A DNA stretch of 64,000 nucleotides, from NCBI GenBank assembly GCA_050179755.1, contig JBFXEV010000001.1:1449994-1513993 (forward strand), in the 5' to 3' direction. The position numbers and the translations under genes are program-made. Source of the stretch: Candidatus Babeliales bacterium. Its GTDB lineage: Bacteria > Babelota > Babeliae > Babelales > JBFXEV01. Every line of letters starts with the position of its first letter. Position 1 is the first letter of the stretch. The notes under the pieces were generated by a model that was given only the letters and a program-made list of their open reading frames with translations, was not told the origin of the DNA and did not search any database. Shown piece by piece: positions 32,074 through 54,310 of the stretch.

Positions 32074-32105
32074 GTAATTCTTTTAAATAAAATGTTGAAA
32101 ATATA

Positions 32106-36200: not shown

Positions 36201-38761
36201 GCCCTTGGAGCAGGAACACCATCTTGAAAAGCTTTTTTACAATAAGCAGTCGCTTTTTCAAGCAACTGAGTTTCAGTACTTTGATTATCGTCAATAAAGC
36301 GACAGGGCACCAATGCTTGCACCACATAACAATGTGCTAATAAATAAGCTATAGGATTATGCAAACCTTTATATTTACTGTTTTCTAATGTTTTTTCAAT
36401 TTTGGCAACAATAGAAAATTGCCTGAAAGGTTCAAATGATGTTTTAAAATCACGTATTTGAGAATAATCTACACCAAGAAAAGCTTCAAACAGTTCTGTA
36501 CATATATGAACAGCATGATCAACTTTTTGTTTGTCATCTGAACATAACAAATCTGCTATATACCAAGGCCCTGCAATTTGATGATTCGCTTGCACATAGT
36601 GCATCATCTGATATTTTGCAAAAGCCTGCACTAATTTTCTTTCAGCAGATGGCAATTGAACCGTCAATAAATCCAATAATTGTTTTACTATAACATCAGC
36701 TTTTTTTGGAGCATCAGCTTGTTCAAGTAATGCCAAAATACCACGATACAACATCACTGCTCTAGTGAATTCCTGTACTTGCTTTTTTTCAGACCCTTGC
36801 TGTGCTGCATTTGGATCTTGGTTACTTTTTATAACTTCACCTGCCAATTTCACTACATCATCTAAAAGACTTCTATTCTCTACAGCCAACCCAGTTTGTT
36901 CACACCCTTCATGATATAATCTAAACAAAAGCCTACTTAATAAATATTTGGCTTGTGCATTGTTACTCCGCCTTGCAATATCATCGAGCGCCGTGCGTAT
37001 GCGCAAACAGGTATCATCTGCTGCACTGGGCGTTCGTTGTGCCAAATAAAGTTCACCTATTTGTATACCATATGCGATCGTTTCTTCTGAAAGCACTTCT
37101 TGTTCTGTATGCATGCGCTGCACTTTAACACAGCAAGCATCAACCTGTTTTTGTTCAACTAGTCTTTCAAGCAGTTGCTCGGCACGATCACGCATTGCAC
37201 AAGTTAATTGATCACCACCAAAAACTAAATTAACAATATCAATAAGTTGGCGCGCCGCTGTTGGTTTTTGTGCATAAAAATCAAAGACCGCTTGAGCAAA
37301 ACTTTGTATAATTTGCAAGGTATTTTTAAATTCGCTTTCTACCATCAAACCACTTTTTGCATAGCGCAGTATACGCTTATATGCTTCTCTTTGCTGAGTA
37401 TCATCTACCAATGCTTCATCGCTCAGCGCATTTTTGCAGGCCCATTCTGCCCAAAATGTGCATACAGTGGGCTGATTTTGCTCGGCCATGCGAACAAGGC
37501 TATCAAGCAGGCCAAATTCTTTGAGTTGTTGCTCCATACATCTATCATTTTGCTGCATGCATGTACGGACCAGAGCTTCTGCTTGTACAACAGCTTGCGC
37601 TTTTCTAGTCTTATTTTTGGAAGATAGTTGCTGTTGGACTCCAAAGCATGTTGCGCGTAAATCGCCAATTGTTGCAAGTTTATCCAGCAACTGCCTACCC
37701 AATTGCTGCACGTGCAAAATTACGGGTACATTAGAAGAGCTTGCTAATAACTCAATTAAACAAGCTGATGCAAGATCAAGGTTTTGTTCTTCGTATGCAC
37801 CTATAGCTGCCATATAACAGGTAAGTGCTTTGCCTAAATCACTATGCGTTGGATCTTGTACTAACGATGCACAATATGCCGCGAGCGGCCTTATGGCAGC
37901 CAGTTGCTTTTTTATTTTCTTTTCAAGTGCTTGTTCAAACAATGCGTTCACCATAGCCTGCTGCGCTTCAACATCACCTGCATCTGCAAGCTGTTTAATT
38001 GCAGGCAAATGCCCATCAGCTGCAAGTGCCGTACACAATAGGTGCGCTACAGGCTGCCAACAGGGATATAATAGTGCTTTATTTTGTAACAAGAGTAAAT
38101 TACTAAACGCTTGTTGATATTGCTCTTGCGACCAATAACGTGTGCATTGCGAAGCATAGAAAATAGGTTCTTCATGAGATCTATATTCATTGCATGTAAG
38201 TACTGCTTGACGTAATGCATTTTCAGCTTCAAAAACCTGACTTGCCTCAAGCAATTTTATGCCACGTGCAAAATCAATAAGAGGGAAATATTGCGTGCCC
38301 TTTTTTGTTACTAAAGAACCTGCAATTAATTCCGTACGTTGTGACGCTAAAGGCTCTGCAGCTTTTTCTAAAGCGATTATAGGATCATCACTTTGCAATG
38401 CTGCCTGGAATTTACATTCAAAGAGCGCATCATGAACACTTGTACCACTATGCATGCCATAACAAGGAATAGGCCGTTGTATAACCGTAGTAAGCTGCGG
38501 TAATAAAGGAGCCACTTCACTACCAAACAAAGAAGGGGTCATTTTTGTGCCAAAGGATCCTTCGACTCGCTTCGCTTGCTCCCAGCCTGCGCATAAAGGC
38601 CGCCCATCCTGAGCAGGTCGAAGGACGGCGGGCATAGCAGTATGAGCGGACTCAGGCAACATTGCAAGAACATCACTTGTGCATGTTAATAAGCCCAAAG
38701 TAAGACATGTTACATATGTAAAATGTGACATACTATAAGCATATTTCTTTATACCAGCCAC
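33266..38761 (-). CDS. Giant secreted alpha-helical repeat protein (Sel1/TPR-like), 1831 aa, paralog of 26590-32073
   Basis: Signal peptide VLA/ML; collinear shared blocks LPQLTT..QRP.P.YGMHSGTS, AKYLLSRLLFRL, CMRA, FACG. Confidence 0.75.
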   Translation of the reverse strand: MAGIKKYAYSMSHFTYVTCLTLGLLTCTSDVLAMLPESAHTAMPAVLRPAQDGRPLCAGWEQAKRVEGSFGTKMTPSLFGSEVAPLLPQLTTVIQRPIPCYGMHSGTSVHDALFECKFQAALQSDDPIIALEKAAEPLASQRTELIAGSLVTKKGTQYFPLIDFARGIKLLEASQVFEAENALRQAVLTCNEYRSHEEPIFYASQCTRYWSQEQYQQAFSNLLLLQNKALLYPCWQPVAHLLCTALAADGHLPAIKQLADAGDVEAQQAMVNALFEQALEKKIKKQLAAIRPLAAYCASLVQDPTHSDLGKALTCYMAAIGAYEEQNLDLASACLIELLASSSNVPVILHVQQLGRQLLDKLATIGDLRATCFGVQQQLSSKNKTRKAQAVVQAEALVRTCMQQNDRCMEQQLKEFGLLDSLVRMAEQNQPTVCTFWAEWACKNALSDEALVDDTQQREAYKRILRYAKSGLMVESEFKNTLQIIQSFAQAVFDFYAQKPTAARQLIDIVNLVFGGDQLTCAMRDRAEQLLERLVEQKQVDACCVKVQRMHTEQEVLSEETIAYGIQIGELYLAQRTPSAADDTCLRIRTALDDIARRSNNAQAKYLLSRLLFRLYHEGCEQTGLAVENRSLLDDVVKLAGEVIKSNQDPNAAQQGSEKKQVQEFTRAVMLYRGILALLEQADAPKKADVIVKQLLDLLTVQLPSAERKLVQAFAKYQMMHYVQANHQIAGPWYIADLLCSDDKQKVDHAVHICTELFEAFLGVDYSQIRDFKTSFEPFRQFSIVAKIEKTLENSKYKGLHNPIAYLLAHCYVVQALVPCRFIDDNQSTETQLLEKATAYCKKAFQDGVPAPRAVRAWKLLDKINYVRSQAYLRNGQIEKAKSLLAESAGLEYPTCMRACAMLALEQPREAAVCLDKQTFDAHVLMLERAYELGDKQAGAILAEHYYDGRLTRFACGNHIEKDLKRALELAVALGDVYPQTARILGFLEFYKVVQNPKNKGRRVDLSRAVTLLMQSARDGQKHAYRHLEEIVLSEWITQEVAQIANDFIVEKAAEHIPEALCALAGIFLADRDQRRIEYAIQSYEDAIRYSDGRLGHMELANLYCRRNACKAAQHCLAMIELGARDGGAPMEQSQVIGNVLGALLGYQGAQDDKAVADTLREEIITKLARLGIEITTSVQAAAESPAALEATALSMTVDIAQAMETDPNAFSRMQDFAESNPYAQHTLSLFYLKKAKNGSAQPEAQQQRCDDFLQAIHYASRALTADVKNENYKNQLIASYYELYHYYRTVLIPQVAFDQESLNGGLGVINKTLEVLLVCNLPEQEIMSIKQEAAHCIRNLASCGCVQAMKLVLATQFKDVVPEVQQESVQVVFRGCHALSQMREEEWESSGVEACLDSHIEDINKIATTGNGHASFIVACWMEHKAKKLDKNNNQRYSLVYLEQSVRQGCIEAQPILHMTYLLRDSTLSAKQCAELIAQLECYVRNHGLTDSPSYGVIHFVIKMYRDGMVLPCRFRVSKDMARAKELALRWKNNSGAALMTLATLAQEENDLDAFFDYAFRLYQIGLFTLDDMLKFCVEYKRFPKKLEEYAQVESKKGKVTMLRALCGVWVARQEYEKAIAWCTDLLADGFAQASMELVEIYLNPQFAGLDIERALTYLAICMNHIKEMRFEIQTVANVVNQCTHRLLELEKFAQSQRHEKLKIQVSRAMDTLVRYGEEFITDGYESVEFLCIHIINQCAMSTFDFKKIVDTFERVFEFHKIQPHEGDVYYITNALKLLLAKHTSVLQGLDPSERAQIAESNLQMKRLNTLVLGSDIKLKMTLFTDKKKK
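38559..38649. repeat. Composite family A palindromic repeat inside a coding sequence
   Basis: CCTTCGACTCGCTTCGC...CCGCCCATCCTGAGC..GTCGAAGGACGGCGGGC...ATGAGCGG; near-identical core at 59139-59258. Confidence 0.85.
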
Positions 38762-38769
38762 AGTATCCT

Positions 38770-41700
38770 TTATTGCGCTCTACGTAATTTATTTTGTAAA
38801 AGAGTAAGCACCTGTTGTTGTCTCTTTATTATGTTTTTATCTTCTTCTGAACAAGAACTTACTTGCAACGCTTCTAAAGCCGTATTGGTAGTCTGTACTA
38901 TAGAATACAATAAATTAGAAATATTTGCTTCTTTAGAATTTTTAGCAACATTTGCGCATATAAAAACAAGCTTGGTGGCCATATGAGCTCGTACTGCTAA
39001 AGTTTGGCCATATTGACCGTTCAGCCAATAGATAACTTGATCTTGCGCTACTTTCATTATTCTTTCTTTACACACTAAATCATCGACTGCTTGAACATTT
39101 TCTGCAGCTTTTGTTAAAATGGTGACCACATTATCAAAGTTGGCATTTTTTGTTCCTAACCATAATAACGTTAGCTTAACACTAAAATAACTATGATACG
39201 CAAGAGCTCGTTTCATCACATCAATATCCTCACTCTGCATTATTACTACGTGCAGTAATGCAAGCATTTTTTCAAGTTGTTCAAGTGAAGGTTGCTTCAT
39301 ATTATTTGCTAATGGAACAACCTCTCCTGCACCCGCTGCTTGTATTAGATTGACAATTGTTTGTACGCGATCGACTTCTTGCCGAACGAATAATCTATCA
39401 AAAGCGTCAAACGCTCTTTGGCAATGTTCTACCACTTCAGTAAGCTGCAAGAAACCTTGTTGATCCAACAATGCTCGTGCTTTATATGATTCATGTATAC
39501 ATTCCATATCCGCGCCTTTATAAGTGGCAATTTCTTGGGATAATTGAGCATAGTGTTTATCTGCAAATAACACAGAAAGCAATAATCTATGCGCTTCCTC
39601 TGAACTATCTTTAATACGTTCCAGCAGCTCCAGACCGCGTTCTCGCAACTTTTTTGAAAGTTTATTTTTAAAAGTACGGTTTGTACTGTAATTAATGTAC
39701 ATTCGTGCAACTTCTAAAATCTCCTCAACTGTTGCTTGCTCACGCAGAACATACTGCGTTACTTCATGAAAAATTTCTTGTGACTTATCTTGAAGCACAA
39801 GTATATCAATATACATGCAATGAATTGCAGGCTCAGTATCTTTATATGATTTAATCAGATCTCTTGCCTTTGCAAGCAATAAGTTTCTCTCATGGCCCAT
39901 CACTGCCCGAGCCTGAGCCATATAAATATTTGCAAGTTTTGCGCGATTATTTGGGAAATCTTTAGAATCATCTATAATCAATTTTTGCAAGTAATCAACT
40001 GCCTTTGCAAGATCTTCTTTCATAAGATGAATTTTAAAACCAGCATAACAGTCTGCCATAAACTGCAATGAAGGGCGATGCTTGCCTGAACGTGATAATT
40101 GCTCCATCAAAGCAACCCCCTCTTGCCGCAATGCACTTTGCCCACTATCCATAAGAACCCGAGCAAATTCATATTTCACATCAATAGTAGGATTCAATTC
40201 CAACGCTCGTTTATAAAGCAATCGTACTTGTTCCATGTTTACTTCTTTATCAAGAGCGCGGGCTTGCGTTACTTTAACCAATGCAAGTTGTTTTTGGCGC
40301 TCAGCAGTTTTGCCGCCCTGTTCTTGCAATGCTCTTGTTAATAAGGGATCCGCTTCAATCGTTAGATCTAAAAAATCTTGATTCATCCCTGCCTCTCTAT
40401 AGCAACAACCCACCATTAAAAGATGTTCTCCTGATTGAGCAGTTCGAGCAGCTTTTAATATGGTAGGAAAGAGTGCCCTATATTTCCCGTGATGCAAATT
40501 TTTTAAATGCATATCTTTGGTGCTACGCAATGCCTGATCCACTAGTGAAAATAATTTGCATACATAATCAGCATTTTGCTGCGTAAGATGTTCTTGTTGC
40601 ACCCAATGTTCAATTACTCCAAGCAAAGCATCCAAATAAATAATACGATGCTGCTCTGGCAAACTATCTATAGCTATTTCTTTAAGCAACAAATCATCTT
40701 TAACCGGATCATCAAACGCATCATTACCAGCTTGCACAGGATATAAAATAAATTGTAAAGCCTTCTTTTGATGTGCTAATGCGGTTCTTTCTTTAAGCAA
40801 AAATCCACGGCCAAGATGAGCCCTTAATCCAAATACGTTGATCAATACATTTTGAATGCTTATATCTTTCCTAAAACGCTCCATATAGCGCAAAACGCCA
40901 GACGTATTAAGAAATTCTAAATAGAAAGTATCAATCGTATGCTTATTACTCACAAAATATTTTTCGAGACTATGCACTGTACCTGCCAATGCAGCAATGT
41001 ATTTTTTATACTCGTCATCGTTATATACTTCAATTTCAAAAGCAGCTTCTTTACCACATGCAAGAGCATGTTGATACATAACAACACCATTAGATGAATG
41101 AACTTTACTCATATCTTGTGAAAGTACGTGTAAATTCCACTCAAGTGCACTTAGCTTAAAACAACCTGCAAGTCTATACAAAGAATTAGGAGGAGCATTT
41201 CTAAATTTTTCTAAAGCCATAGTATAAAACACAAATGCAAGATCAGGTTCAATTTCTCGTAGTTCGTCTCCAACTCGTTCTGCCGCAAATGGATTGCCCA
41301 ATCGTGCCGCGTGTTTAAGACACTCTAGCCCTTCAAAGTATAATTCATCATCTTCCTCTACTATTAATTTTTTACCCTTCAAATACAGATCTTGCACCTT
41401 TTGATAATCAACTTGTACTGCAACTGATTGATCAGCAGCTGCTTCCATTTCTAGGGCACTTGAAACTAAAACGCTCTCTTGATCAGCCAGGCACGGGCCA
41501 AGAAGCACCTGCGCTTGAATATCTTCTTGAGACCTCTGTTTAGGCTCATATGCTGCTAAGTTTTTTTGAATCTCTTCAAACAATGCTTTGCTTGGTTCAT
41601 ATGATCCTACAACAGATTTTTCAGCGTAAGCAAGAGCTCGTTTTAATTCATGAGAAGGATCTGCAGCATTCTCTTCTTGATCACTAATTGCTAAAAAGAA

Positions 41701-42366
41701 ATGATGTTTTGCCAGAACATACTGCGCATGCGCATTATTATTTGCCTGCGCAAGCCGTTCTATATCATCTAAAATCTCACTATTTTCATTAAATACCAGG
41801 GAATGCTCTCTATAGTTTTTTTCCTTTTGATCAGTTTCTTTAAGTGTAATGAGATCCTCAAAGCGTTCAAGCCCTTGATCAACATTGGACAATAAGGGAC
41901 TGTTAATTAATTGCTTCACCAGATAAAATTTAGAAAGTGGATGATCCTTTTCGTCAGCAAGAATCCTTACACGGCCAATTGCTTCTTGCCGCATTCTTAG
42001 TAAAAGAGGGGTGTCTCTAGGACCTTTTATAACGTCATCAAGATATTTAAAAACGAGATCTGACTCTTTCAATGCAATGTCTGCCTGTAAACCCATAATA
42101 AAAGCTTTAAATGAAGCAAGTTCTGCAGTAGAACCATTTGGATTATCATTAAGTGCTCGTTTTGTTGCTCGCAAAGCAATTTTTAAATGCTTATCTAAGG
42201 CCGGACCTGTTGTAATTAAAACATTTTCTAAAGCCGAGCGCGCCGTCAGTAGATCTTTGCTCGGACTATGAGAATTAGGCACAACAAGCGCCTTACTTTT
42301 TTTCATACCATGTACTGGCAGCGTACACATCAAACATAACAAAGCTGGATAGAGCGATCTCATCAT
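38770..42366 (-). CDS. Large secreted Sel1/TPR-like repeat protein, about 1200 aa
   Basis: Signal peptide VHG/MK; HAARLGNPFAAERVG, AHAQYVLAK, LYKRALELNP repeats; alternative start 42381. Confidence 0.7.
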   Translation of the reverse strand: MMRSLYPALLCLMCTLPVHGMKKSKALVVPNSHSPSKDLLTARSALENVLITTGPALDKHLKIALRATKRALNDNPNGSTAELASFKAFIMGLQADIALKESDLVFKYLDDVIKGPRDTPLLLRMRQEAIGRVRILADEKDHPLSKFYLVKQLINSPLLSNVDQGLERFEDLITLKETDQKEKNYREHSLVFNENSEILDDIERLAQANNNAHAQYVLAKHHFFLAISDQEENAADPSHELKRALAYAEKSVVGSYEPSKALFEEIQKNLAAYEPKQRSQEDIQAQVLLGPCLADQESVLVSSALEMEAAADQSVAVQVDYQKVQDLYLKGKKLIVEEDDELYFEGLECLKHAARLGNPFAAERVGDELREIEPDLAFVFYTMALEKFRNAPPNSLYRLAGCFKLSALEWNLHVLSQDMSKVHSSNGVVMYQHALACGKEAAFEIEVYNDDEYKKYIAALAGTVHSLEKYFVSNKHTIDTFYLEFLNTSGVLRYMERFRKDISIQNVLINVFGLRAHLGRGFLLKERTALAHQKKALQFILYPVQAGNDAFDDPVKDDLLLKEIAIDSLPEQHRIIYLDALLGVIEHWVQQEHLTQQNADYVCKLFSLVDQALRSTKDMHLKNLHHGKYRALFPTILKAARTAQSGEHLLMVGCCYREAGMNQDFLDLTIEADPLLTRALQEQGGKTAERQKQLALVKVTQARALDKEVNMEQVRLLYKRALELNPTIDVKYEFARVLMDSGQSALRQEGVALMEQLSRSGKHRPSLQFMADCYAGFKIHLMKEDLAKAVDYLQKLIIDDSKDFPNNRAKLANIYMAQARAVMGHERNLLLAKARDLIKSYKDTEPAIHCMYIDILVLQDKSQEIFHEVTQYVLREQATVEEILEVARMYINYSTNRTFKNKLSKKLRERGLELLERIKDSSEEAHRLLLSVLFADKHYAQLSQEIATYKGADMECIHESYKARALLDQQGFLQLTEVVEHCQRAFDAFDRLFVRQEVDRVQTIVNLIQAAGAGEVVPLANNMKQPSLEQLEKMLALLHVVIMQSEDIDVMKRALAYHSYFSVKLTLLWLGTKNANFDNVVTILTKAAENVQAVDDLVCKERIMKVAQDQVIYWLNGQYGQTLAVRAHMATKLVFICANVAKNSKEANISNLLYSIVQTTNTALEALQVSSCSEEDKNIIKRQQQVLTLLQNKLRRAQ

Positions 42367-42371
42367 GAACC

Positions 42372-43085
42372 TTACTGGCATATTAGTAATTCATGCGTAA
42401 TACGCGCAAACTGTTCTTGAGTCAAATTAAATTCATCACTAAAAAAACCCCTGATTAATAATTCTTTTGCTTTTTGTTCGTCTATACCGCGTGATTTCAG
42501 ATACACTACTTGATCGTCGTTAAAACTACTGGTGGCTGTACCATGTTTACATTGCACTGAATTAGTATGCACTTCTAAGCTTGGCATAGCTACTGCTCGC
42601 GCAGTATGTGAAAGCAATACATTTTTATTATAAAGTGCAGCATCAGTTCCGTGTGCACGTTGAGCAATGTTAATAATGCCATGATAGTTAAATAGCGCTT
42701 CGCCTGCCAAAGCACATTGCACCATGCTATAACTTTTTGTATGCGGAGCTTGATGATCTTGCACAAGAGTAATGTGATGTTGCATGGTACCATTTAGTGC
42801 ATAGCAACCGTGAATAGTTGCTTGTGCCCCTTCCTCTTCTAAAATAACTTCTATACTAATTTCACGCGCGCACGGACCTATTGCAATAAACGTGAGTTTG
42901 AGATTACCATCTCGTTTACACACAAAACGATATCTAGAAGAAGTATGCGCGCGAGCGGAATCTAACGTAAGCACATAGTCAAGGCGCTCACAATCACGCA
43001 CAATTATTTCTACCAATGGAACTTCCAAAAGGGAAGGCTCTAATTCGGTTGCGTTATCCAATTGAATTCTCCATTTCAAGCGCAA
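42372..43085 (-). CDS. sufD: Fe-S cluster assembly protein SufD (short form; start uncertain)
   Basis: [22 protein letters not shown] motifs; follows sufB. Confidence 0.85.
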
Positions 43086-44409
43086 TCAATCGATTAATCT
43101 CTACGGCATATTCCATAGGCAAGAATTTAACAAATGCTTCAATAAAACCATTTACAATAAGAGTGCTTGCTTGTGTTTGCGTCAAACCTCGGCTCATTAC
43201 ATACACAAGCTGTTCATCAGAAATTTTGCTTACAGACGCCTCGTGGCCAATATCTACCTGTTCTTCCCGCACATCAACCGTAGGATAGGTATCAGAGCGC
43301 GAACGATCATCCATTATAAGCGCATCGCATTGCACACGTGCCTTCACGTGATGCGCGCCTTTAATAACTTTTAATAAGCCACGGTAACTAGATCTGCCAC
43401 CATTTTTTGAAATAGATTTTGCAACCACCGTAGAGCTAGTGTGCGGTGCCAAATGAATCATTTTTGCACCAGAATCTTGATGCTGCCCTTTGCCGGCAAC
43501 AGCAATAGACGTGACATGCCCTTTGGCGCCACGCTCTTTAAGAATAATAGCAGGATATTTCATAGTAACTTTGCTGCCAAAATTACCATCGATCCATTCA
43601 ACTTTAGCATCCTGATAGGCAACAGCTCGTTTGGTTACTAAATTATATACGTTGGTTGACCAATTTTGTATGGTGGTATAACGCACATGCGCACCTTCAA
43701 GTGCTATAATTTCTACCACTGCGCTATGCAGGGAGCTTGTTCGATACACAGGCGCACTACAGCCTTCTACATAGTGCACAAAGCTACCTTTATCAGCAAT
43801 AATAAGAGTGCGCTCAAATTGCCCCATTTCTTGTTGATTCATTCTAAAGTATGCTTGCAAAGGCAAATCTATATGCACACCTTCAGGTACATATACAAAG
43901 CTTCCTCCACTCCAAACAGCCGAATTTAACGCAGCAAATTTATTATCATGCGCAGGCACCACGCTTGCAAAATATTTTTTAACTAAATCAGGGCAACGCT
44001 CTAAAGCTTGAGTAATATCACAAAATATAACACCCTTTTGCTCCCATTCGTCTTTTAATTTTTTATAGATCAATTCTGATTCAAGTTGTGCGCCAACACC
44101 AGCCAAATAAGCACGCTCGGCTTGCGGAATGCCCAACTTTTCAAACGTATTCTTCATAGAATCAGGCACATCATCCCATGATGTTCTTGTTTCTTGAACC
44201 GGCTTAACATAATAATGAATATCATGATGATTAAGCTCAGATAAATCTGCACCCCACGCTGGCATTGGCATGCTTAAAAATCGTTCAAATGCTTTTGCGC
44301 GAAACTCACGCATCCATAGTGGTTCATTTTTTTGTTCACCAATCAGACTAATCATAGATGCATCCAGGCCTTTACGGCTCTTATATGCATAATTAACCGA
44401 TTGCATCAT
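43054..44409 (-). CDS. sufB: Fe-S cluster assembly protein SufB
   Basis: [46 protein letters not shown]. Confidence 0.97.
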
Positions 44410-45121
44410 AACCCCGTTCTTTAATAATAGAAAGTAATGAAACATTGCCAGCACACACAATCTTGCCTTGTTTTAATATATGCACCACATCAGGCGAGAG
44501 AGTTTCTAAAAATGGCTGATAATGAGTAATACAAATAAGTGCCATTGTGGGATTTTGCTCCCGCACGATATGCAATGCACGCGTTACTACTTTTATAGCA
44601 TCAACATCAAGCCCTGAATCTAACTCATCAAGAATAGCTATTTTTGGTTTTAAAACTAAAAGTTGCAACAATTCAAGCTTTTTCTTTTGCCCGCCAGAAA
44701 ATCCATCATGTACATGACGCTCTGCAAATTCATACGGAATTTCAAGAAGATCCATGGCCTCGATGAGTTGTGCATAGAAATCACCAATCGTAGAATCAGA
44801 GTTGCATAGTGCACGATACGCTTCATGTAAAAACTGCAAAACGGTAACACCTTGAACAAGCATAGGATGCTGAAATGCCAAGAAAAGGCCCAATCTTGCT
44901 CGTTTTTCAACTGAAAGATCTAAAATGTTCTGATTATTAATAACAACGCTGCCCTTTATTGCCTGATACTGTGGATGGCCAATAAGTGTAAGGGCAAGAG
45001 AACTTTTGCCCGATCCGTTAGGGCCCAGAAGCGCATGTACGGTGCCCGGCTGCACTACAAGATTAATATCTTCTAACACTAGCTTTTCTTGTATCGTGAC
45101 AGAAAGCGAACTAATTTCCAT
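44393..45121 (-). CDS. sufC: Fe-S cluster assembly ATPase SufC
   Basis: [32 protein letters not shown]. Confidence 0.95.
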
Positions 45122-45235
45122 ATTCAAAAGTTCCTTGAGTGTTATACTATACTTATTACATTGCTACCTAGCGTAGCAGAAATGGCGCAAAGCCGCTACT
45201 AGAAGCACATGGAGCAATACCAAAGGAGTATAGCT

Positions 45236-46027
45236 ATGAACAAAAAATCTCTGTATCTTTCCTCATTTTTTTTATTTTGCGTGGGAACTTTTACTACCAC
45301 GCAAGCACGAGCGGCCAAACTAATATGCCTTAATGATCGCGCAGTGCAGCCTACTACCGTTTTTTTATTTGCACATGGTATCACCCGGAGCTCAGACACG
45401 GCAATAAAACAAGCTCAAACATATATTGAGAGCAATATTATCATGAACACTTGTTACACATTTGACTTTGGTGATGGGCTCAGAACCATTAACTTGGGTC
45501 AAGAGCCAGACTGCGCCTTATTTGCAAGCGCCTATGCTCAAGTACTTGAAAAACATCATGATGCACACATTATACTTATTGGTCTTTCAAGAGGTGCCGT
45601 GACCATTTTAAATACCATGGCATTACACCCTGAGCTTGATTGGCAACGAACAAAAGGAGTTATTCTTGAATCGCCCTACGCCAATGTGAGTGCCATGGCA
45701 GAACAAATTGCAAGTTCTTATATGTTCTTTGTGCCATTTAAAGCAACTATTATGCGCAAATTAATTGATTGGTTACCTTCATATAAACCAGATGGCATAC
45801 AGCCTATTGAAATGATTTCAAAAATTAAAGTAGATGTTCCGTTCTTAATTGCATATTCAGAAGCTGATAAAACGGTGCCTGCTGCCGGCACGCGCATGCT
45901 TATTGATAAGTTGCAATCTGCCGGTCATCGAGTCACAAGTTGGTCTTGCCAAAAAGGTAAGCATAGCACGTTAGGATCGAATGCAGCGTTTTCACAGGCT
46001 GCACGAGAATTTTTAAGTAAGCAGTAA
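45236..46027 (+). CDS. Secreted alpha/beta hydrolase
   Basis: AAGGAG RBS, signal peptide, AHG, GLSRG nucleophile elbow, ILESP, D..VP, GKH. Confidence 0.8.
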   Translation: MNKKSLYLSSFFLFCVGTFTTTQARAAKLICLNDRAVQPTTVFLFAHGITRSSDTAIKQAQTYIESNIIMNTCYTFDFGDGLRTINLGQEPDCALFASAYAQVLEKHHDAHIILIGLSRGAVTILNTMALHPELDWQRTKGVILESPYANVSAMAEQIASSYMFFVPFKATIMRKLIDWLPSYKPDGIQPIEMISKIKVDVPFLIAYSEADKTVPAAGTRMLIDKLQSAGHRVTSWSCQKGKHSTLGSNAAFSQAAREFLSKQ

Positions 46028-46079
46028 GATATTCCAAAACAACCTATGTTTTAGTTGAATTATTATGATTATTCAATTC

Positions 46080-46364
46080 TTAACCACCAGTACAAAGATT
46101 ATATGTATCAGGAAATCCTTGCTGTTTCTTGCTAAATCTTTTTAAATGAGCCTCTATCATTAAGGGTTCATTTATGCGTTCAAAAAAAAATGTATCCGTT
46201 TTTTCAGGATCAAATTTTATTTTTTGTTCAATTTTATCAAATATGCAAAGTGCTTTTACTAACTTTTTTGTAACTCCTGTAGTTATTTTTTCATATGATT
46301 TTGTTTCTATCAAGTAGTTTACAGTTGTTGCATCCTCAAATACTTTATAAAAATCTATATTCAT
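46080..46364 (-). CDS. Putative immunity protein, copy 3 (94 aa)
   Basis: VKALCIFDK, FD.EKTD.FF, EP.MIEAHLK, FP..Y...TGG shared with copies 1 and 2. Confidence 0.7.
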   Translation of the reverse strand: MNIDFYKVFEDATTVNYLIETKSYEKITTGVTKKLVKALCIFDKIEQKIKFDPEKTDTFFFERINEPLMIEAHLKRFSKKQQGFPDTYNLCTGG

Positions 46365-46370
46365 TAATTT

Positions 46371-46424
46371 TCCTTTCCATAATCTATCCCATGCAACGGC
46401 AATTTCAACATCAGCAGGAAGGCG
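46371..46424 (-). pseudogene. Relic of a toxin C-terminal tip
   Basis: RLPADVEIAVAWDRLWKG aligns with RFDPNIEIAAAWNRLYKG of the 600-aa toxin. Confidence 0.6.
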
Positions 46425-46514
46425 TCCGTTTGTCGTCAAAAATTGAAAACATAATACACTAGGGTAAATTGTAGGCTTTTTTATAGCCAACACCCAAATT
46501 TTTGAGATAAAACA

Positions 46515-46802
46515 TTATCCCCCAGTAGCAATATGATACTCCTCTGGAAATCCATTTTGCTTTTTATCAATTTTTTTCAAATGAGCTTCTATCATTAAAG
46601 GTTCCCAAGAACGATCAACAAAAAAAGAATCTGTTTGTTCAGAATCAAAAGATATGGTTTTTGTATTTTTATCAAATATACAAAGTCCTTTAACTTTTAC
46701 CCATTTTATTTCCGGCATAAAACTTTGATCCCAATAATCTGTCTCAACCCAGTAGCACACCCTTGCTTCATCTTCTGAGGCTATATGTAAATCCAAAAAC
46801 AT
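46515..46802 (-). CDS. Putative immunity protein, copy 2 (95 aa)
   Basis: VKGLCIFDK...WEPLMIEAHLKK...FPEEYHIATGG. Confidence 0.7.
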   Translation of the reverse strand: MFLDLHIASEDEARVCYWVETDYWDQSFMPEIKWVKVKGLCIFDKNTKTISFDSEQTDSFFVDRSWEPLMIEAHLKKIDKKQNGFPEEYHIATGG

Positions 46803-46817
46803 AATATTACTTTCAAA

Positions 46818-47102
46818 TTACCCACCTGTTACTATATCATACATATCTGGAAAAGGCTCTCCAATTCTATTGAGCTTTTTTAAATGGTGCAATATATATA
46901 TCGGTTCCCATTGGCAATTAAAATAATAAGCATCAGTCTTTTCATTATCGAAAGTTATAGTTTCCAATTTCTTATCAAATATGCACAGGGCTTTTACAAC
47001 TGTCTTTATAATCTTTGTTGGAGTTTCCTCATATATAGTACTTTCTATCCTATAACTAACAGATTCAGCATCTTCAGATATCTTATCAAGTTTTAAATAC
47101 AT
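46818..47102 (-). CDS. Putative immunity protein, copy 1 (94 aa)
   Basis: TAATG-coupled to the toxin gene; VKALCIFDK...FPDMYDIVTGG. Confidence 0.7.
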   Translation of the reverse strand: MYLKLDKISEDAESVSYRIESTIYEETPTKIIKTVVKALCIFDKKLETITFDNEKTDAYYFNCQWEPIYILHHLKKLNRIGEPFPDMYDIVTGG

Positions 47103-48904
47103 TATTTCTCCAAAAATTTAGGTTCGTTCCAGTACCATCTTGTTTGAATTCTATCATGAGCTGTATCATAGTTGGTTTTAAAAATTTTTTCATATTTGGA
47201 TTCTGCATATTCATGTTGCAATAATTGAATATCATTTTTTATGTAATCACCCTTATACAGCCTATTCCACGCTGCTGCGATTTCTATGTTAGGATCAAAT
47301 CGAGAAATTTTTGTGCGTAAGACATGCATGTCTTTAAATAGATGATCTTTTATAGTTTGAATTTTCGATAAAGACATCCCTGTATTTTTAGATATTTTTT
47401 CAACATCATCTAGTAGCCCCTGTATTCTGACATACTCTTTCTCAGCCCATTCAAAAGCTTTATAATCATCCAATGGCCTTACAATTCTACACTTTTCTCC
47501 AGTGCCCTTTACTACTTTATAAATATCTTTTGGCTCTGGTTTAAACATTTTTACAAACTCTTTATCTTCTTTTTTTTGCCGTCCCTTCACTTTACATGCT
47601 CTTCTATCAGCTGCTCGTTGCATGCGATTTGTCTTAACATCTTTAAGTGTAGACACGGACACAGAATTATTGTTAAGTATGACTTTATCAATTGTATGTG
47701 TGCCCGCACCAACAAGTTTAATTGCGTATTTATCAACTTTACCATTAAAATACATACTTGCTGCAATTGAGCTTGCTGCCCTCAAACAACCATGCACCGT
47801 GACATTTGCCATTGCTGCTTCAAGTTCTTTTTGCTTCTCTTCAAATTTTTCGTTATTCCCTGCTAATTTTGCAACCCCAGCTGCTGCATAATCCAAGACA
47901 ACCAATCCAACATTAAGCGCAAACTTAGCAGTATAATATTTACCCATAACTACTGGAAACAACCCAAACAAAACCATCTCAGTTTTATGATTTAGAGCAT
48001 ATTCAGCTACATTAATTGCAGCATCTTGAATACCTTCAAGCACTGCTTGCCCACAATCCATTAGTCCCCAACAAAAATCAGCAATATGAACCGTGGCAAT
48101 AATATCACCAATTTTATTAAATTGAGCGCCGCGTGCTGCCATACTTACAATGTAATTTGTAGAAGATCGATATTCTTTGATATAGGCAGAATGTTTCAAT
48201 AGCTTCGATGTTTGCTCAAGAATATCTATAAGTTCAATATGCAATTGATGCTGCAGTGGATTATACAAACCATTGCGAAATAATTGTGTATCTACTTTAT
48301 TGGAATATAATAATGCATCTACATCATGAGATAATTGATACTTACGCTCTATAAAAAAAGATGCATTATCTTTGGTTGATTCATATGCCAGCTTACGCGC
48401 ATTATAACGCGCATAAGCGTCGTTTTGAGATCCCTTCAAGAACAACTCAACTTCTTCCTGCCAAAGATCAAATTGATCTGCCAAGGCAAGAGTATCAGGC
48501 CATATTTCTTTAAATGTATCTAACTGCTTATTTGCTGAACTTATATTATCAATTATCTCAGGAATGTGCACCCTACTAGTTGCATTTTCATTTGATCTGC
48601 GTTCATCCGGATAATACGCTGCAGACTCCGACGCATGCCCGCGTGGATCTCTGTCAATATTATCATATGGATCATAGTAAGAAGAAGATTCCCAAGAAGG
48701 TCTTATTGAATGTGAAGAATGTTCTCGAGAAGTATCTACAGAAGATGGCTCAGATGGTACATCCCGCTCAAAATAAGATATCGGAGGACTAAAATATTCT
48801 GGCAATAATCTATTGAGTTCACATCTTATAGTGGAACATACAAACAATGCAAAAAATGCAAAAATAGATGCAACCGCAACACCCAATGCTTTAACATACT
48901 GCAT
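47102..48904 (-). CDS. Putative secreted polymorphic toxin, 600 aa
   Basis: N-terminal hydrophobic signal, helical trunk, basic linker, C-terminal domain ISKNTG...IKDHLF...RFDP...W.RL...LLQHEYAE...AH; followed by small paralogous genes. Confidence 0.65.
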   Translation of the reverse strand: MQYVKALGVAVASIFAFFALFVCSTIRCELNRLLPEYFSPPISYFERDVPSEPSSVDTSREHSSHSIRPSWESSSYYDPYDNIDRDPRGHASESAAYYPDERRSNENATSRVHIPEIIDNISSANKQLDTFKEIWPDTLALADQFDLWQEEVELFLKGSQNDAYARYNARKLAYESTKDNASFFIERKYQLSHDVDALLYSNKVDTQLFRNGLYNPLQHQLHIELIDILEQTSKLLKHSAYIKEYRSSTNYIVSMAARGAQFNKIGDIIATVHIADFCWGLMDCGQAVLEGIQDAAINVAEYALNHKTEMVLFGLFPVVMGKYYTAKFALNVGLVVLDYAAAGVAKLAGNNEKFEEKQKELEAAMANVTVHGCLRAASSIAASMYFNGKVDKYAIKLVGAGTHTIDKVILNNNSVSVSTLKDVKTNRMQRAADRRACKVKGRQKKEDKEFVKMFKPEPKDIYKVVKGTGEKCRIVRPLDDYKAFEWAEKEYVRIQGLLDDVEKISKNTGMSLSKIQTIKDHLFKDMHVLRTKISRFDPNIEIAAAWNRLYKGDYIKNDIQLLQHEYAESKYEKIFKTNYDTAHDRIQTRWYWNEPKFLEK

Positions 48905-49095
48905 AGTCGCTCCTTATCGCTTATTGCAAATAAGTTATACTACATTTACATTAAAAAGCAAAAAAACATAAAGTATGATACATGAGACGCAAATTTTTAA
49001 TATCCATTGTTTGACAGCCTGAAAAAAGATATTCAAAATATAGGTGAATGCTCATCTAGAAGCATATATCATACTACTGTTGATTGGAAACTCTT

Positions 49096-49656
49096 ATGCT
49101 TACACACTCTATTACGTTACTGATTTTAATTCTGTCATCAGTGAATATGTCCTTAAAGGCAATGGAAACGACTCCAGGGACTGGTAAATTAATTTTACAA
49201 AGTGGTAACTATCAAACGACTCTGAAAGCTAATGCTTTTAAACCCAATTATTTAATTATTCCAAAAGTCACTTCTAGTATTACTGAAGAAGATGGCTATA
49301 AGAGCAGTGTCGTACAAACCATTACAACCTTGCAAATAACACAAGTTAGTCATGCTAACGCTGATAATCCAACTGATATAACATCAAATTTCAGTGAATT
49401 TCCTGTACTTGATATTGGTCCTCTTGAAACTGTCATAAAAGCCGAATTATACAAAAAGTGGGAGGCACAAAAGAAACTTGATGATCATGCGGCTAAAGTT
49501 GCACAAGGACAAGCCATTCATGCTGCACGAAAAGAAGATAGTGAAAAACTATCAATAACACAACGCAATCCCAAAACAACTATTTTTGTTTCTCTTGCAC
49601 TTGGTGCGAGTCTAACATTGTTGTTGTCTCAATGGATTAATAAAGCAGAACTATGA
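49096..49656 (+). CDS. Hypothetical secreted protein with C-terminal TM helix
   Basis: Signal peptide LKA/MET; C-terminal IFVSLALGASLTLLLSQW. Confidence 0.6.
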   Translation: MLTHSITLLILILSSVNMSLKAMETTPGTGKLILQSGNYQTTLKANAFKPNYLIIPKVTSSITEEDGYKSSVVQTITTLQITQVSHANADNPTDITSNFSEFPVLDIGPLETVIKAELYKKWEAQKKLDDHAAKVAQGQAIHAARKEDSEKLSITQRNPKTTIFVSLALGASLTLLLSQWINKAEL

Positions 49657-50808
49657 CACTGCTTTAATAACTTCTTGCAAACTCACCAAGCCCATTGAAA
49701 CTTTATGCATGCCATCGCTCACCATGGGGCGCATGCCATCTTTACATGCTTGATCATATAACGTATCACGTATGGCACGTTGCATTAAAAGCTCCCGCAT
49801 GGCATTAGACATTTCAAGTAATTCAAAAATACCGGTTCGCCCTTTATGCCCTAAGCCATGGCACTCTTTGCAGCCAACGCCACGATACAGCATATCGCAC
49901 GAAAGATGTAATTTTTCAAGCATGCGGTGCTCATGAGTATCGGGAGCATAACTTTCTTTGCAGTGCTCACAAATTTTTCTTACTAATCGTTGTGCCATAA
50001 TCCCGCTCACGGCAGCATTGAGTAAAAACGGTTCAATACCCATATCAACAAGGCGCGTGAGCGCGCCAGGTGCATGAGCAGTATGCAATGTGCTAAACAT
50101 CATATGTCCTGCAAGCGCTGCTTCAATTGCCACTTGCGCAGTTTGTGCATCACGAATTTCACCCACCATAACAATATCAGGGTCTTGGCGTAAAATAGCA
50201 CGCACGCCTTTTTCAAACGTAAACCCGGCCTCGGGGTGAATATTTCCTTGCACTAAACCTTCAATTTGATATTCAACCGGATCCTCAAGTGTTACAATAT
50301 GTTGTTCAGTATTATTGAGTGTTGCAAGCGCTGCATATAACGTGCTTGTTTTGCCAGAGCCTGTAGGGCCAGTTACCAGAATGAAACCACTGGCGCGTTG
50401 AATAAGATCGTTAAATTTTTCAAATAATTGTGGCGACATGCCAAGTTGATCAAATGTATGAAACTGATTATTGCGCTGAAGTAACCGCAAGACCACTTTT
50501 TCGCCTTCTATAGAAGGGAATGTAGAAACACGCACATCAAGAGGCGGATGACCTGCCACTTGTATGGTAAATTTGCCATCTTGAGGAATTCGTTTTTGCG
50601 CAATGTTAATATGGGCTAAAATTTTAAGACGAGTGATCAAAGAATCTGCAAGATTTTCGGGAATATAGGTATGATGATATAAAAGCCCATCAATGCGAAA
50701 TCGCACGCGCAGTCCACGAGCATCTGGCTCAATATGAATGTCTGACGCGTTTTTCTCAAGTGCTTGTGCAATAATGGTATCTACTAATGTGACTGCCGAA
50801 TGACTCAT
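49651..50808 (-). CDS. GspE/PilB family secretion or pilus ATPase (ATPase part only)
   Basis: ASDIHIEP, RIPQDG, GPTGSGKT, LRQDPD..MVGEIRD, STLH, tetracysteine motif. Confidence 0.92.
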   Translation of the reverse strand: MSHSAVTLVDTIIAQALEKNASDIHIEPDARGLRVRFRIDGLLYHHTYIPENLADSLITRLKILAHINIAQKRIPQDGKFTIQVAGHPPLDVRVSTFPSIEGEKVVLRLLQRNNQFHTFDQLGMSPQLFEKFNDLIQRASGFILVTGPTGSGKTSTLYAALATLNNTEQHIVTLEDPVEYQIEGLVQGNIHPEAGFTFEKGVRAILRQDPDIVMVGEIRDAQTAQVAIEAALAGHMMFSTLHTAHAPGALTRLVDMGIEPFLLNAAVSGIMAQRLVRKICEHCKESYAPDTHEHRMLEKLHLSCDMLYRGVGCKECHGLGHKGRTGIFELLEMSNAMRELLMQRAIRDTLYDQACKDGMRPMVSDGMHKVSMGLVSLQEVIKAVS

Positions 50809-50867
50809 GAGCTATTCTCCTACTTACACCTAAGTAGTAGCATAATCATGAAATGAAAAAAAAGAGT

Positions 50868-51428
50868 TTATGAGTTTTCATCTTTATTTGTTTTATAGAA
50901 GTTAGGCTCTTGTTCATGTTCCTGGCCATATTCCTCTTCGGGAGTTTCTTCCGGTTCATTAGGATCACGAACATCTGCAGGCGATTTATCATAAAACTCT
51001 GATATTGCATCGGTAATATCTTGGTCAAGGCCAACATTAAACACAATATCATAAGAAACATACTCACCAATGCGCGGTAGCAACTCAGGATCTTGCGGAT
51101 TACCTGCAATCATAAGCATAATATTATCATCATGCTCAAGAGGAATAATCACATTTCTGTGCAAGAAATCTTTAGGGAACATATGCAAAGCTTGATGATC
51201 AAAAAAATGACCTAATACGTCAAATGATGGCACATTATAATAGGTGCTTAATGCATTTAATAAATCAGTACGAGAAACAAGGCCTTCATCAAGCAAAAAT
51301 TGATCAAAATTTGCTTTGCCACTTTCTTTAAACCCTTTTACAAGAGCTTGTGCTTCATCTTCTTTAATAACATTATGCAACATAAGGATTCGTGTTAATC
51401 CTTCTACAAATGTTTCTCCTTGTTTCAT
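50868..51428 (-). CDS. Stand-alone GspE/PilB N-terminal domain protein
   Basis: FLLDEGLVSRTDLLNALSTYYNVP...FPKDF...IIPL...AGNPQD resembles the N-terminus of PilB/GspE; acidic tail. Confidence 0.75.
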   Translation of the reverse strand: MKQGETFVEGLTRILMLHNVIKEDEAQALVKGFKESGKANFDQFLLDEGLVSRTDLLNALSTYYNVPSFDVLGHFFDHQALHMFPKDFLHRNVIIPLEHDDNIMLMIAGNPQDPELLPRIGEYVSYDIVFNVGLDQDITDAISEFYDKSPADVRDPNEPEETPEEEYGQEHEQEPNFYKTNKDENS

Positions 51429-52553: not shown

Positions 52554-53822
52554 TCACAATTTTATTATAAGCAACTCATCCCACTTAGTGGTAAATGACG
52601 GAGATTTATGTGCTCGTTTTGAGCACCATTCTTTTGTGCTCCCTTGCGCTGCAAACCCAACCGTGCCAGATCCCCATTTATGATTAAGCAAATCAATTTC
52701 TTGCATAATCACACGTTGCTTATCTTGTTGTTCTTGCGAAAGAAACGCATGAATTTGTTCTTGATCTTCAGGAAGTAATTCTGTTGCAATAATACCAGCT
52801 CGTTTATATGAATAACCAGCATAAAAAATTTCTTCTAGCGCCGAGCTTGCAGCAGTAATAATATCTGGCGTATAGGAAGTTGGTTTTAAAAGTTCTATTG
52901 CTCTACTATTATAATATTTATATTCAGTATGATAGCTTGTCATAATAAATACGTAGAGTGAACAGGCAAGCATTTTTTCTTCTCGCAATTTACGCGCTAA
53001 CTGCACGGCATAATTTGCAATCGCTTCTTTTAATTCTTGAAGCTCCGTTACTTTTTTACCAAATGAACGCGTATGCGCAATTGATTGCTTATCTTGTGGT
53101 TGTGTGACAATACTCAAGCATGGAATTCCACGCAGTTCATGCACGGTACGCAAGCCCACAATAGTCATATTCTTTTTAATCCAAGCATCTTGTGCATATT
53201 TTAATTGCCGCGCACTTGTAATGCGGTACCGTTTTAATTTTTTTGTATATTGCCTACCAACGCCCCAGATATCTTCAACTTTAAATTGCTCCAAAATTTC
53301 ATCTATATTTGGTGCACGCGTAATATCAAATACGCCTTTATGCTGAATTTGCTTTTTGGCAATGTGATTTGCTACTTTTGCAAGTGTTTTAGTTGGCGCA
53401 ATACCAATAGAAATAGGAATACCCGTACATTGCAAAACACGCTTGCGCAACAGCCTTCCAAGCTCTAAAGGATCACAAGCCATGCTATCAAAACGTAAAA
53501 ATGCTTCATCAATAGAATATACTTCAATTTCTGGCACATGCTCATGGAGCACGCTCATAACACGCGCTGACATATCGCCATATAAATTAAAGTTAGATGA
53601 GAACACGCGAATGTTATGGCGCTTAATTAACGCTTCACATTTAAACACAGGAATGCCCATGGCAATACCAAGATCTTTTACTTCTTGAGAGCGTGCCACC
53701 ACACAACCATCATTATTAGAGAGCACCATTACCGGCACGCCACGCAGCCTAGGATTAAAAACACGCTCACATGAAACAAAGAAATTATTACAATCAATAA
53801 GCGCAAAAAGTTTATTGGTCAT
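52554..53822 (-). CDS. umuC: Y-family DNA polymerase V catalytic subunit
   Basis: DCNNFFVSCE, LSNNDGCVVARS, YSIDEAF, SPSFTTKWDEL; ATGA-coupled to umuD. Confidence 0.93.
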   Translation of the reverse strand: MTNKLFALIDCNNFFVSCERVFNPRLRGVPVMVLSNNDGCVVARSQEVKDLGIAMGIPVFKCEALIKRHNIRVFSSNFNLYGDMSARVMSVLHEHVPEIEVYSIDEAFLRFDSMACDPLELGRLLRKRVLQCTGIPISIGIAPTKTLAKVANHIAKKQIQHKGVFDITRAPNIDEILEQFKVEDIWGVGRQYTKKLKRYRITSARQLKYAQDAWIKKNMTIVGLRTVHELRGIPCLSIVTQPQDKQSIAHTRSFGKKVTELQELKEAIANYAVQLARKLREEKMLACSLYVFIMTSYHTEYKYYNSRAIELLKPTSYTPDIITAASSALEEIFYAGYSYKRAGIIATELLPEDQEQIHAFLSQEQQDKQRVIMQEIDLLNHKWGSGTVGFAAQGSTKEWCSKRAHKSPSFTTKWDELLIIKL

Positions 53823-54310
53823 GAAACAGAATGAATTGCATGCGTCACTACGCCCCAAATTTCAAAATCCATGTCTTCTGTAATTTTGATAGGCGCAAAT
53901 GATGCATTTTCAGAAACTAAATATAAAGAACCTAAACGATTTTTTACACGCTTAACCGTAAATTCTCCATTAATTGCAGCAACCACAATGCTGCCATCTT
54001 TTGGTTCAAGCGCACGATCTACAATAAGCAAATCACCAGAATTAATACCGGCATCTACCATAGAAGTTCCTTCAACACGCACAAAATACGTTGCAGCAGG
54101 ATGCTTAATCAAATATTCATTTAAATCGAGTGATTTGCCAGGATTTTCATGCGCAAGCGATGGAAACCCAGCAGGAACTTTTTCTTGCAAAAGTGGCACC
54201 TTTATATGTGTGTGTGGCGCGAATGCATAAAAAGTCAGTGTGCTCTCTTTTTGTTGGAGCGTTTTAATAATGCTAAATTTGTTATGAGTTTTATTGTGTG
54301 AATGTTCCAT
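53819..54310 (-). CDS. umuD: DNA polymerase V accessory subunit (S24 peptidase)
   Basis: VPAGFPS cleavage site, VEGTSM, FTVKR, IWGVVT. Confidence 0.93.
   Translation of the reverse strand: MEHSHNKTHNKFSIIKTLQQKESTLTFYAFAPHTHIKVPLLQEKVPAGFPSLAHENPGKSLDLNEYLIKHPAATYFVRVEGTSMVDAGINSGDLLIVDRALEPKDGSIVVAAINGEFTVKRVKNRLGSLYLVSENASFAPIKITEDMDFEIWGVVTHAIHSVS

Follow-up and report, generated by a model that had tools for sequence, protein, structure and literature searches.

The DNA analyzed here is a 64-kb stretch of contig JBFXEV010000001.1 from Candidatus Babeliales bacterium (positions 1,449,994 to 1,513,993 of the forward strand), referred to below as the window; coordinates are positions in this window. 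Between 46080 and 48904, its minus strand carries a gene for a protein of 600 amino acids (aa) followed by an array of three related small genes. Comparison of these genes with proteins and genomes from elsewhere suggests, with a probability that we put at about 0.75, that they form a polymorphic toxin-immunity locus; toxicity, toxin-immunity binding, and export are predictions from sequence. The locus comprises the following features.

47102..48904, minus strand: putative polymorphic-toxin precursor, 600 aa, with signal or anchor, low-complexity linker, trunk, and tip (open reading frame call and two full-length relatives).
48821..48904, minus strand: hydrophobic N-terminal segment, residues 1 to 28, predicted Sec-type signal or membrane anchor (hydropathy; conserved Cys23 and Cys28).
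47645..48547, minus strand: conserved trunk, residues about 120 to 420, presumed delivery/translocation module (trunk-only profile matches).
47105..47542, minus strand: C-terminal putative toxin tip, residues 455 to 600 (profile matches and AlphaFold2 model).
47135..47473, minus strand: conserved core of the tip, residues about 478 to 590 (family alignment).
46818..47102, minus strand: immunity-like gene 1, 94 aa, isoelectric point (pI) 5.1 (TAATG-coupled to the toxin gene; family member, E = 4e-23).
46515..46802, minus strand: immunity-like gene 2, 95 aa, pI 4.8, putative orphan immunity gene (open reading frame and paralogy).
46353..46430, minus strand: relic of a second tip, 26 residues corresponding to tip-profile positions 102 to 127 (hmmsearch with the tip profile).
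46080..46364, minus strand: immunity-like gene 3, 94 aa from the ATG at 46364, pI 7.7 (AAGGA 6 nt before the ATG).

The 600-aa gene, the TAATG-coupled 94-aa gene, and two further 94- to 95-aa paralogs had been described in an original prediction made from the letters of the DNA, and all of them were present in the sequence. The 64-kb window has 619 stop-to-stop open reading frames (ORFs) of ≥40 aa. The stop codon of the toxin gene overlaps the start codon of gene 1 in the string TAATG (GAGAAATAATG), and the frame of gene 3 remains open upstream as far as 46514. The 3' region had been called more AT-rich than its flanks. The GC content was 0.303 in the array, 0.322 in the tip, 0.368 in the trunk, about 0.40 in the flanks, and 0.392 in the window; the lowest-GC 1,500 bp of the whole 64 kb starts at 46001 (0.305; mean, 0.392; standard deviation, 0.024) and coincides with the tip and the array. 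This AT-rich tip-plus-array block looks like an acquired cassette. A scan for promoters and terminators did not rise above shuffled expectation (15 promoter-like sites versus 17.2 expected; 0 terminators).

The C-terminal domain, which had been singled out as distinct, is discrete, confidently folded, and reused behind many polymorphic-toxin scaffolds. The AlphaFold2 model of the tip, generated from a 49-sequence alignment, has a predicted local distance difference test score (pLDDT) of 94.8 and a predicted template modeling score (pTM) of 0.88 and contains two short hairpins and six helices. Residues D500, I504, K519, H521, W546, D558, H564, and E565 are invariant in the family, and Y491, N507-T508-G509, F523, H527, F536, D539, R548, E568, E572, Y579, and H583 are near-invariant. 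The domain is basic (pI 9.0). The motif TGEKCRIVRP (residues 467 to 476; 47476-47505, minus strand) immediately precedes the tip and is kept as "TGExCRxVRP" in many otherwise unrelated carriers, whereas "QTGGRQI" is found elsewhere; by analogy with other polymorphic toxins, it could be a processing or demarcation site.

The spread of the tip was determined by an exhaustive profile search of representative proteins (clusters at 50% identity), seeded with the 600-aa protein and its full-length relatives P0002 and P0003. The search matched 1813 representative proteins at an E value of ≤1e-3, 854 at ≤1e-10, and 49 at ≤1e-30. Six of the 150 best matches listed out of the 1813 were trunk-only, and nearly all others were confined to the last 110 to 145 profile positions. 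The tip was present in 146 of the 164 retained proteins, which ranged as tip carriers from 123 to 3939 aa in length, and in 144 of these 146 it ended ≤30 aa from the C terminus. A Pfam scan of 44 profile matches assigned RHS to four proteins, LXG to two, and PT-TG, Phage_GPD/VgrG, and LysM to one each; Ntox35 was found in one trunk-only relative, and 34 proteins had no Pfam match. Among 11 tip-bearing proteins from genomic loci, RHS was found in 5 and PT-HINT in 1. Searches with tblastn recovered the tip from 18 records of annotated phages, including gp4 of Clostridium phage CDMH1 ("putative minor head protein") and Streptococcus suis prophages, and from 5 plasmid records, including a "pre-toxin TG domain-containing protein" and a "hemagglutinin repeat-containing protein." Structural look-alikes of residues 470 to 600 in a protein atlas (template modeling score [TM], 0.85 to 0.92) end Phage_Mu_F, Phage_min_cap2, and WXG100-type proteins. 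A polymorphic-toxin warhead would be expected to have such a distribution of carriers. Scanning of genomes with an 11-sequence tip alignment yielded 41 loci from Cyanobacteria, Lachnospiraceae, Myxococcota, Proteobacteria, and metagenome-assembled genomes (MAGs) of Dependentiae/Babeliales, with the best match (54% identity) in a Babeliaceae MAG.

The 600-aa protein begins with its sole strongly hydrophobic stretch (residues 1 to 30; 19-residue Kyte-Doolittle value of >1.5), with a preceding lysine at position 5. L20, C23, R27, and C28 are invariant across the three orthologues; Cys23 is conserved after the hydrophobic core, and the lipobox is atypical. Hydrophobic leaders also start the trunk relatives, and export by Sec is the predicted role of the leader. 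No known trafficking domain was found in the 600-aa protein by a Pfam scan, which returned two subthreshold chance matches only (TssO and Choline_sulf_C) at an E value of ≤1. The trunk had no match in the copies of Pfam, NCBIfam, PHROGs, and PADLOC searched and no sequence match in the Protein Data Bank (PDB).

A word-based search revealed P0002 and P0003 as the only full-length relatives (52 to 53% identity). The trunk without the tip was matched in P0016, P0017, P0018, P0021, P0022, and P0029 (E = 1e-47 to 1e-71; among the 150 matches listed), and part of it also matches the tip-bearing protein of locus L039 from a Babeliales MAG. P0016, P0021, and P0022 align to residues about 120 to 420 at 29 to 33% identity and then diverge: P0016 carries the Pfam domain Ntox35, P0022 a P0016-like tip, and P0021 a tip of a third kind. 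The original prediction had staked itself on the trunk occurring with alternative C termini, and these were found, the Ntox35 tip of P0016 among them. Because the same trunk bears different tips in other proteins, it is probably a delivery or anchoring module. P0017, a relative of 405 aa, has the trunk only and stops before any tip; P0017 and the 94-aa immunity-family member P0011 both list a longest contig of 1,865,056 bp (NCBI-held genome). These two proteins may come from a genome related to this one, with a truncated toxin gene and a surviving immunity gene.

Alignment of the three small proteins bore out the claim that they are diverged paralogs with common motifs. The proteins of genes 2 and 3 are 45 to 46% identical to that of gene 1 (43% for gene 2 in a second comparison); the motifs CIFDK, EP..I..HLK, and FP..Y and a terminal TGG are common to all three, and an 84-nt DNA block occurs in three copies with 69 to 77% identity. 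The profile of this putative immunity family matched the three array genes only among the 619 window ORFs (E = 1e-22 to 1e-23). The AlphaFold2 model of the small protein (pLDDT, 91.9) contains a four-stranded sheet and helices. The family had been put forward as one without a name, and the window proteins and their relatives indeed had no Pfam or NCBIfam match at the curated cutoffs and no PHROGs or PADLOC match at an E value of ≤0.01. No N-terminal hydrophobic leader is visible in the sequences of the small proteins; a cytoplasmic site of protection and a cytoplasmic target are therefore suggested.

In nearly every one of the 41 tip loci, an ORF of 72 to 114 aa begins within a few dozen bases of the tip stop codon. 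With the window-family profile, the ORFs that follow the tip in L021 and L001 were matched directly, and those in three Lachnospiraceae loci gave weak matches. When 4572 ORFs were searched by jackhmmer from a small ORF of Lachnospiraceae, the search converged at 54 hits and identified a family member directly after the tip in 39 of the 41 loci, which span several phyla. The remaining hits were the three window genes (E = 1e-23 to 1e-25), the 11 proteins of the family, and an additional fragment at L011. The gene after the PT-TG toxin of a Priestia plasmid is also a family member (E = 2e-21), and gp5 of phage CDMH1, which follows the tip-bearing gp4, is a weak one (E = 7e-4). In L021, L028, and L041, the tip frame is broken or truncated (pieces with 45 to 59 matched residues) and the downstream small gene is intact; these look like decaying toxins with retained immunity. 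At L001 (6447-8603, plus strand; Babeliaceae MAG), an 827-aa tip protein and a 101-aa family member are followed by five further small same-strand ORFs of 79, 95, 71, 121, and 114 aa, and the four scanned (79, 95, 121, and 114 aa) lacked a Pfam match; the immunity or orphan array may be longer here.

The history of the array can be read in part from its relatives. The gene 1 protein is 54 to 59% identical to P0008, P0012, P0013, and P0014, the gene 2 protein is 56 to 64% identical to P0008, P0009, and P0010, and the gene 3 protein is 78% identical to P0007, so that every member of the array has closer relatives elsewhere than among its neighbors. Upstream of gene 3 lies the tip relic, a feature absent from the original prediction. 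It represents the "..D.EIA.AW.RL.KG" helix, is in frame with gene 3, and runs into its ATG; the HE..E helix is missing. The match had an E value of 5.5e-6 among the pieces of 45900-47110 and of 5e-5 among the 619 window ORFs, where it was the sole match besides the toxin itself. By appearance, the array combines a single cognate immunity gene with two orphans, one of which would have stayed behind when an older tip was displaced. P0007 and the orthologue P0003 each have a longest contig of 4412 bp, which suggests that an Imm3-type gene may follow the P0003 toxin.

A polymorphic toxin system is understood here as defined by Zhang et al. 2012 (PMC3482391) and Jamet et al. 2017 (PMC5576092). By the comparisons described above, the predicted toxin of the window has a conserved N-terminal region that is common to proteins with different C-terminal toxin domains, its tip has homologues in other polymorphic-toxin families, an immunity-like gene lies immediately downstream of the toxin domain, and orphan immunity-like genes with a toxin-fragment cassette (two diverged paralogs and the 26-aa relic) follow. 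Each element of the arrangement originally proposed, namely, trunk, tip, immunity gene, and orphan immunity genes, is supported by comparison (tip carriers, the trunk with other tips, adjacency in 39 of 41 loci, and the relic).

The 600-aa protein would be exported by Sec through its N-terminal leader, and the trunk would deliver or anchor the toxin. The tip would be the toxic enzyme, a member of a widespread unannotated toxin-domain family, and might, at low confidence, hydrolyze a cytoplasmic target, perhaps nucleic acid, in a metal-dependent manner. A nucleic acid target is suggested because the basic tip pairs with the acidic proteins of genes 1 and 2 (pI 4.8 to 5.1). The product of gene 1, translationally coupled to the toxin, would be the cognate immunity protein that binds and blocks the tip in the producer; this role is proposed because of the conserved adjacency of the two genes. 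Genes 2 and 3 would act as orphan immunity genes against variant tips of relatives, and gene 3 would keep the relic of a former tip after C-terminal displacement or deletion. The victims may be competing bacteria or a eukaryotic host, and the data settle neither. Bacterial targets are favored because of the immunity array and the presence of the tip on antibacterial scaffolds.

The chemistry of the tip was considered in light of its conserved residues. Because of the invariant His/Asp/Glu cluster (H521, H527, D539, D558, H564, E565, E568, E572, and H583), our guess, held at low confidence, is that the tip may be a metal-dependent hydrolase, possibly a nuclease. H564, E568, and E572 are predicted to lie on one helix face and to form a metal site. 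Weak fold matches of the tip include the helix-turn-helix (HTH)/DNA-binding proteins Noc, MntR, and DtxR, which together with the pattern "I..NTG.S...I..IK" give a faint lead toward nucleic-acid binding. Neither the tip of the window protein nor that of its relatives had a Pfam or NCBIfam match at the curated cutoffs or a PHROGs or PADLOC match at an E value of ≤0.01. Scanning of 49 tip-family members gave no consistent family; DUF5798 (4/49) and HTH_Tnp_ISL3 (2/49) were matched weakly, and no peptidase family was matched. The original prediction had proposed a Foldseek comparison of the tip and the small protein, which was run on both. The best PDB hits had E values of 0.44 for the tip (TM, about 0.2) and 0.058 for the small protein, and the best hit of the tip in BFVD had an E value of 0.25; none gave a usable fold.

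Several candidates for the tip were rejected. PDB profile matches to designed tetratricopeptide repeat (TPR) proteins were attributed to chance, since only a short repeated "DP..A.AW..L" string is shared, and a PDB profile match to goose-type lysozyme (E = 0.1) was likewise attributed to chance. A zincin HExxH metallopeptidase was discarded, as the sequence reads HEYAE, the family consensus is HE[YFLI]xE, and no peptidase or zincin fold was matched. Identity with PT1 or PT7 was also discarded; crystal structures of these toxins exist according to the Nachmias preprint (10.1101/2021.10.19.465003), and they were not matched in the PDB searches. None of six 9-nt codings of H-E-Y was found in a text search of PMC13483458. 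The tip is called unnamed with respect to Pfam, NCBIfam, PHROGs, and PADLOC; PT2 to PT9, the 24 W10XG toxins (PMC13483458), and STox (PMC12994826) lie outside this comparison.

Several observations weigh against a polymorphic toxin-immunity locus or parts of its proposed mechanism. No fold or family match supplies any chemistry for the tip, and the near-neutral pI of the gene 3 protein (7.7) weakens the argument that the small proteins are acidic nucleic-acid mimics. The same tip is found in all three full-length orthologues, and polymorphism appears only among trunk relatives at 29 to 36% identity. About 25 of the 41 loci, mostly from Nostocales, consist of a standalone tip of 115 to 153 aa and a partner of 79 to 93 aa without a trunk and resemble toxin-antitoxin modules (L004, L006, L007, L010, L014 to L017, L019, L020, L022 to L027, and L029 to L037). 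Two of the 41 loci have no significant family member downstream: L038, which reached only E = 2e-3 in a further search, and L039, which is cut by the end of its contig. Among the three annotated phage and plasmid loci, two were positive, and the Rhizobium tip locus had no family member downstream. Finally, hhalign comparison of the window-type and cyanobacterial small proteins gave a modest probability of 72% over 38 columns, and the link between them rests on the Lachnospiraceae intermediates.

A farther-reaching interpretation is that the tip founds a structurally new superfamily of enzyme toxins with its own immunity fold and that the novel leader-dependent trunk, which bears it in this bacterium and its Dependentiae-like relatives, defines an endosymbiont-type class of polymorphic toxins for in-host competition or host addiction. 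Its basis is the breadth of the family (at least about 1800 clusters at 50% identity, with type VI secretion system [T6SS], type VII secretion system [T7SS], RHS, contact-dependent inhibition (CDI)-like, and phage MuF carriers as well as standalone cassettes), together with the lack of a PDB fold match. We regard this extension as tentative and on balance doubtful.

A different possibility, should the organism be an endosymbiont, is a toxin directed at a eukaryotic host, for exploitation or host "addiction" and not against other bacteria, with small proteins that protect only the producer. The contig is small (1.53 Mb), the nearest relatives of the tip, the trunk, and the small protein are found in Dependentiae/Babeliales MAGs, and polymorphic-toxin loci with orphan modules in a protist endosymbiont have been proposed, in the description given by PMC8163844, as a host-addiction device. 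The same tip, however, sits on T6SS, T7SS, RHS, and phage scaffolds in free-living bacteria, and a diverged immunity array is a prediction of competition among relatives. Moreover, according to Zhang et al. 2012 (PMC3482391), intracellular bacteria usually have no immunity genes for their host-directed toxins. A host-directed toxin is therefore considered unlikely, though it is the strongest of the competing explanations.

The standalone loci listed above raise a second possibility, a toxin-antitoxin (addiction or abortive-infection) module in which the tip would act in the producer once a labile small protein is lost and the N-terminal 450 residues would be a membrane tether. The two-gene cassette of Nostoc L027, which has opposite-strand genes on both sides, fits such a module as well. 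In the window, however, the tip follows a hydrophobic leader and a trunk, fused to it, that bears other toxin tips elsewhere, and the three diverged copies of the antidote and the tip relic are in keeping with displacement at a polymorphic locus. PADLOC returned no matching defense model, and family scans found no DNA-binding antitoxin domain in the small proteins. The window gene also departs from a type II toxin-antitoxin system, that is, a small toxin with its antitoxin and no export or delivery domain. Such a module appears quite improbable for the window. Least credible is a nontoxic tip, for example, a binding or regulatory domain, with the small proteins as chaperones or adaptors such as secretion chaperones: neither family has a known activity and no catalytic fold was recognized, but the domain occupies the extreme C terminus of LXG, RHS, VgrG, PT-TG, PT-HINT, and MuF-type proteins, which is the slot of toxins, it has an invariant His/Asp/Glu cluster, and the downstream partner has been kept in phyla that use different secretion systems.

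The polymorphic toxin-immunity locus favored here can be compared with known systems. MafB/MafI of Neisseria, studied by Jamet and co-workers, reportedly combine a leader, a conserved N-terminal domain, a variable C-terminal toxin, downstream immunity genes, and orphan cassettes. The window locus resembles them in its predicted leader, conserved N-terminal part, C-terminal putative toxin, and downstream immunity-like and orphan genes and in the lack of a dedicated secretion-system domain on the toxin. MafB is a polymorphic-toxin family with an N-terminal DUF1020 domain (PMC5576092), whereas the window trunk has neither DUF1020 (PF06255) nor any other Pfam match, and the tip and immunity families are unnamed. 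The window locus has one full toxin gene and one relic, whereas Maf loci have several alternative C-terminal cassettes. Rhs and CdiA-CT/CdiI systems share with the window an immunity array after the toxin in which one gene is preceded by a fragment of a toxin C terminus, and RHS proteins and a hemagglutinin-repeat protein carry the same tip family. The window protein differs in having no RHS/YD or filamentous-hemagglutinin repeats and no TPS domain detectable with Pfam, and its relic is just 26 residues long and is fused in frame to an immunity-like ORF.

LXG (T7SS) and MuF (phage) toxins end in a domain of this very family and, in the cases checked, are followed by a member of the small-protein family, but their N-terminal trafficking parts are wholly different, and LXG, WXG, and MuF domains are absent from the window protein. 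Zincin-type toxins (Tox-MPTase) likewise have a His-Glu pair on a helix with conserved acidic and His residues nearby; the window motif is H-E-x-x-E rather than HExxH, and neither the window protein nor the 49 family members had a Pfam peptidase match. The endosymbiont of Bodo saltans (PMC8163844) has toxin-immunity-orphan loci in a small-genome protist endosymbiont; compared by description only, these differ in their domains (Metallopeptidase toxin 5 and colicin-like immunity) and in the presence of a T6SS. No literature pairing Dependentiae or Rhabdochlamydia with a polymorphic toxin was found.

The locus is bordered on both sides by opposite-strand ORFs. ORF 45209-46027 (plus strand) encodes an alpha/beta hydrolase of 272 aa that starts with a hydrophobic leader (Hydrolase_4, E = 2.5e-9), and ORF 49084-49656 (plus strand) encodes 190 aa of no family with hydrophobic N- and C-terminal segments. 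The proximity of an ATPase of the type II secretion system (T2SS)/type IV pilus (T4P) type had been pointed out in the original prediction. A T2SSE-family ATPase does lie at 49651..50808 (minus strand; 385-aa core; PF00437, E = 2.5e-125), and its link to the toxin is one of proximity only. At 49651-51428 (minus strand), this core is preceded by a separate 186-aa ORF with an MshEN N-terminal domain (PF05157); a split gene is one possibility, and a natural two-part organization is another. Suf genes occupy 26590-45127 (minus strand), with SufB at 43054-44460, SufD at 42372-43085, and a class-V aminotransferase (SufS-like) at 32106-33269; a SufC-like gene at 44393-45127 (minus strand) was assigned by reading the sequence. 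Interleaved with these genes are three giant ORFs (1203, 1831, and 1827 aa) for which Pfam gave only weak TPR hits. A Peptidase_S24 (UmuD/LexA-like) ORF at 53819-54310 (minus strand) adjoins a 434-aa ORF at 52554-53858 (minus strand) that, judged from its sequence, looks like a Y-family (UmuC/ImpB-type) polymerase. BatB/BatA-like VWA and BatC-like TPR proteins at 61015-63221 (minus strand; NCBIfam, E = 6e-45 and 4e-21, below the curated cutoffs) suggest a Bat-type operon. The annotation of 26 further window ORFs revealed housekeeping families only.

The kind of system to which the predicted locus belongs is well known and ordinary; its tip, trunk, and immunity protein are the uncharacterized parts. 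Toxins of the LXG, RHS, VgrG, and phage head types have the tip as one of their more common C-terminal domains. Since it is so common on toxin scaffolds, characterization of the tip-immunity pair would give an annotation to many hundreds of protein families and might uncover a new toxic chemistry. For intracellular bacteria, fighting relatives is regarded as an exception in the account of Zhang et al. 2012 (PMC3482391). An apparently intact toxin gene next to three immunity-like genes in a genome of 1.5 Mb suggests that conflict among relatives persists in reduced bacteria that are possibly host associated.

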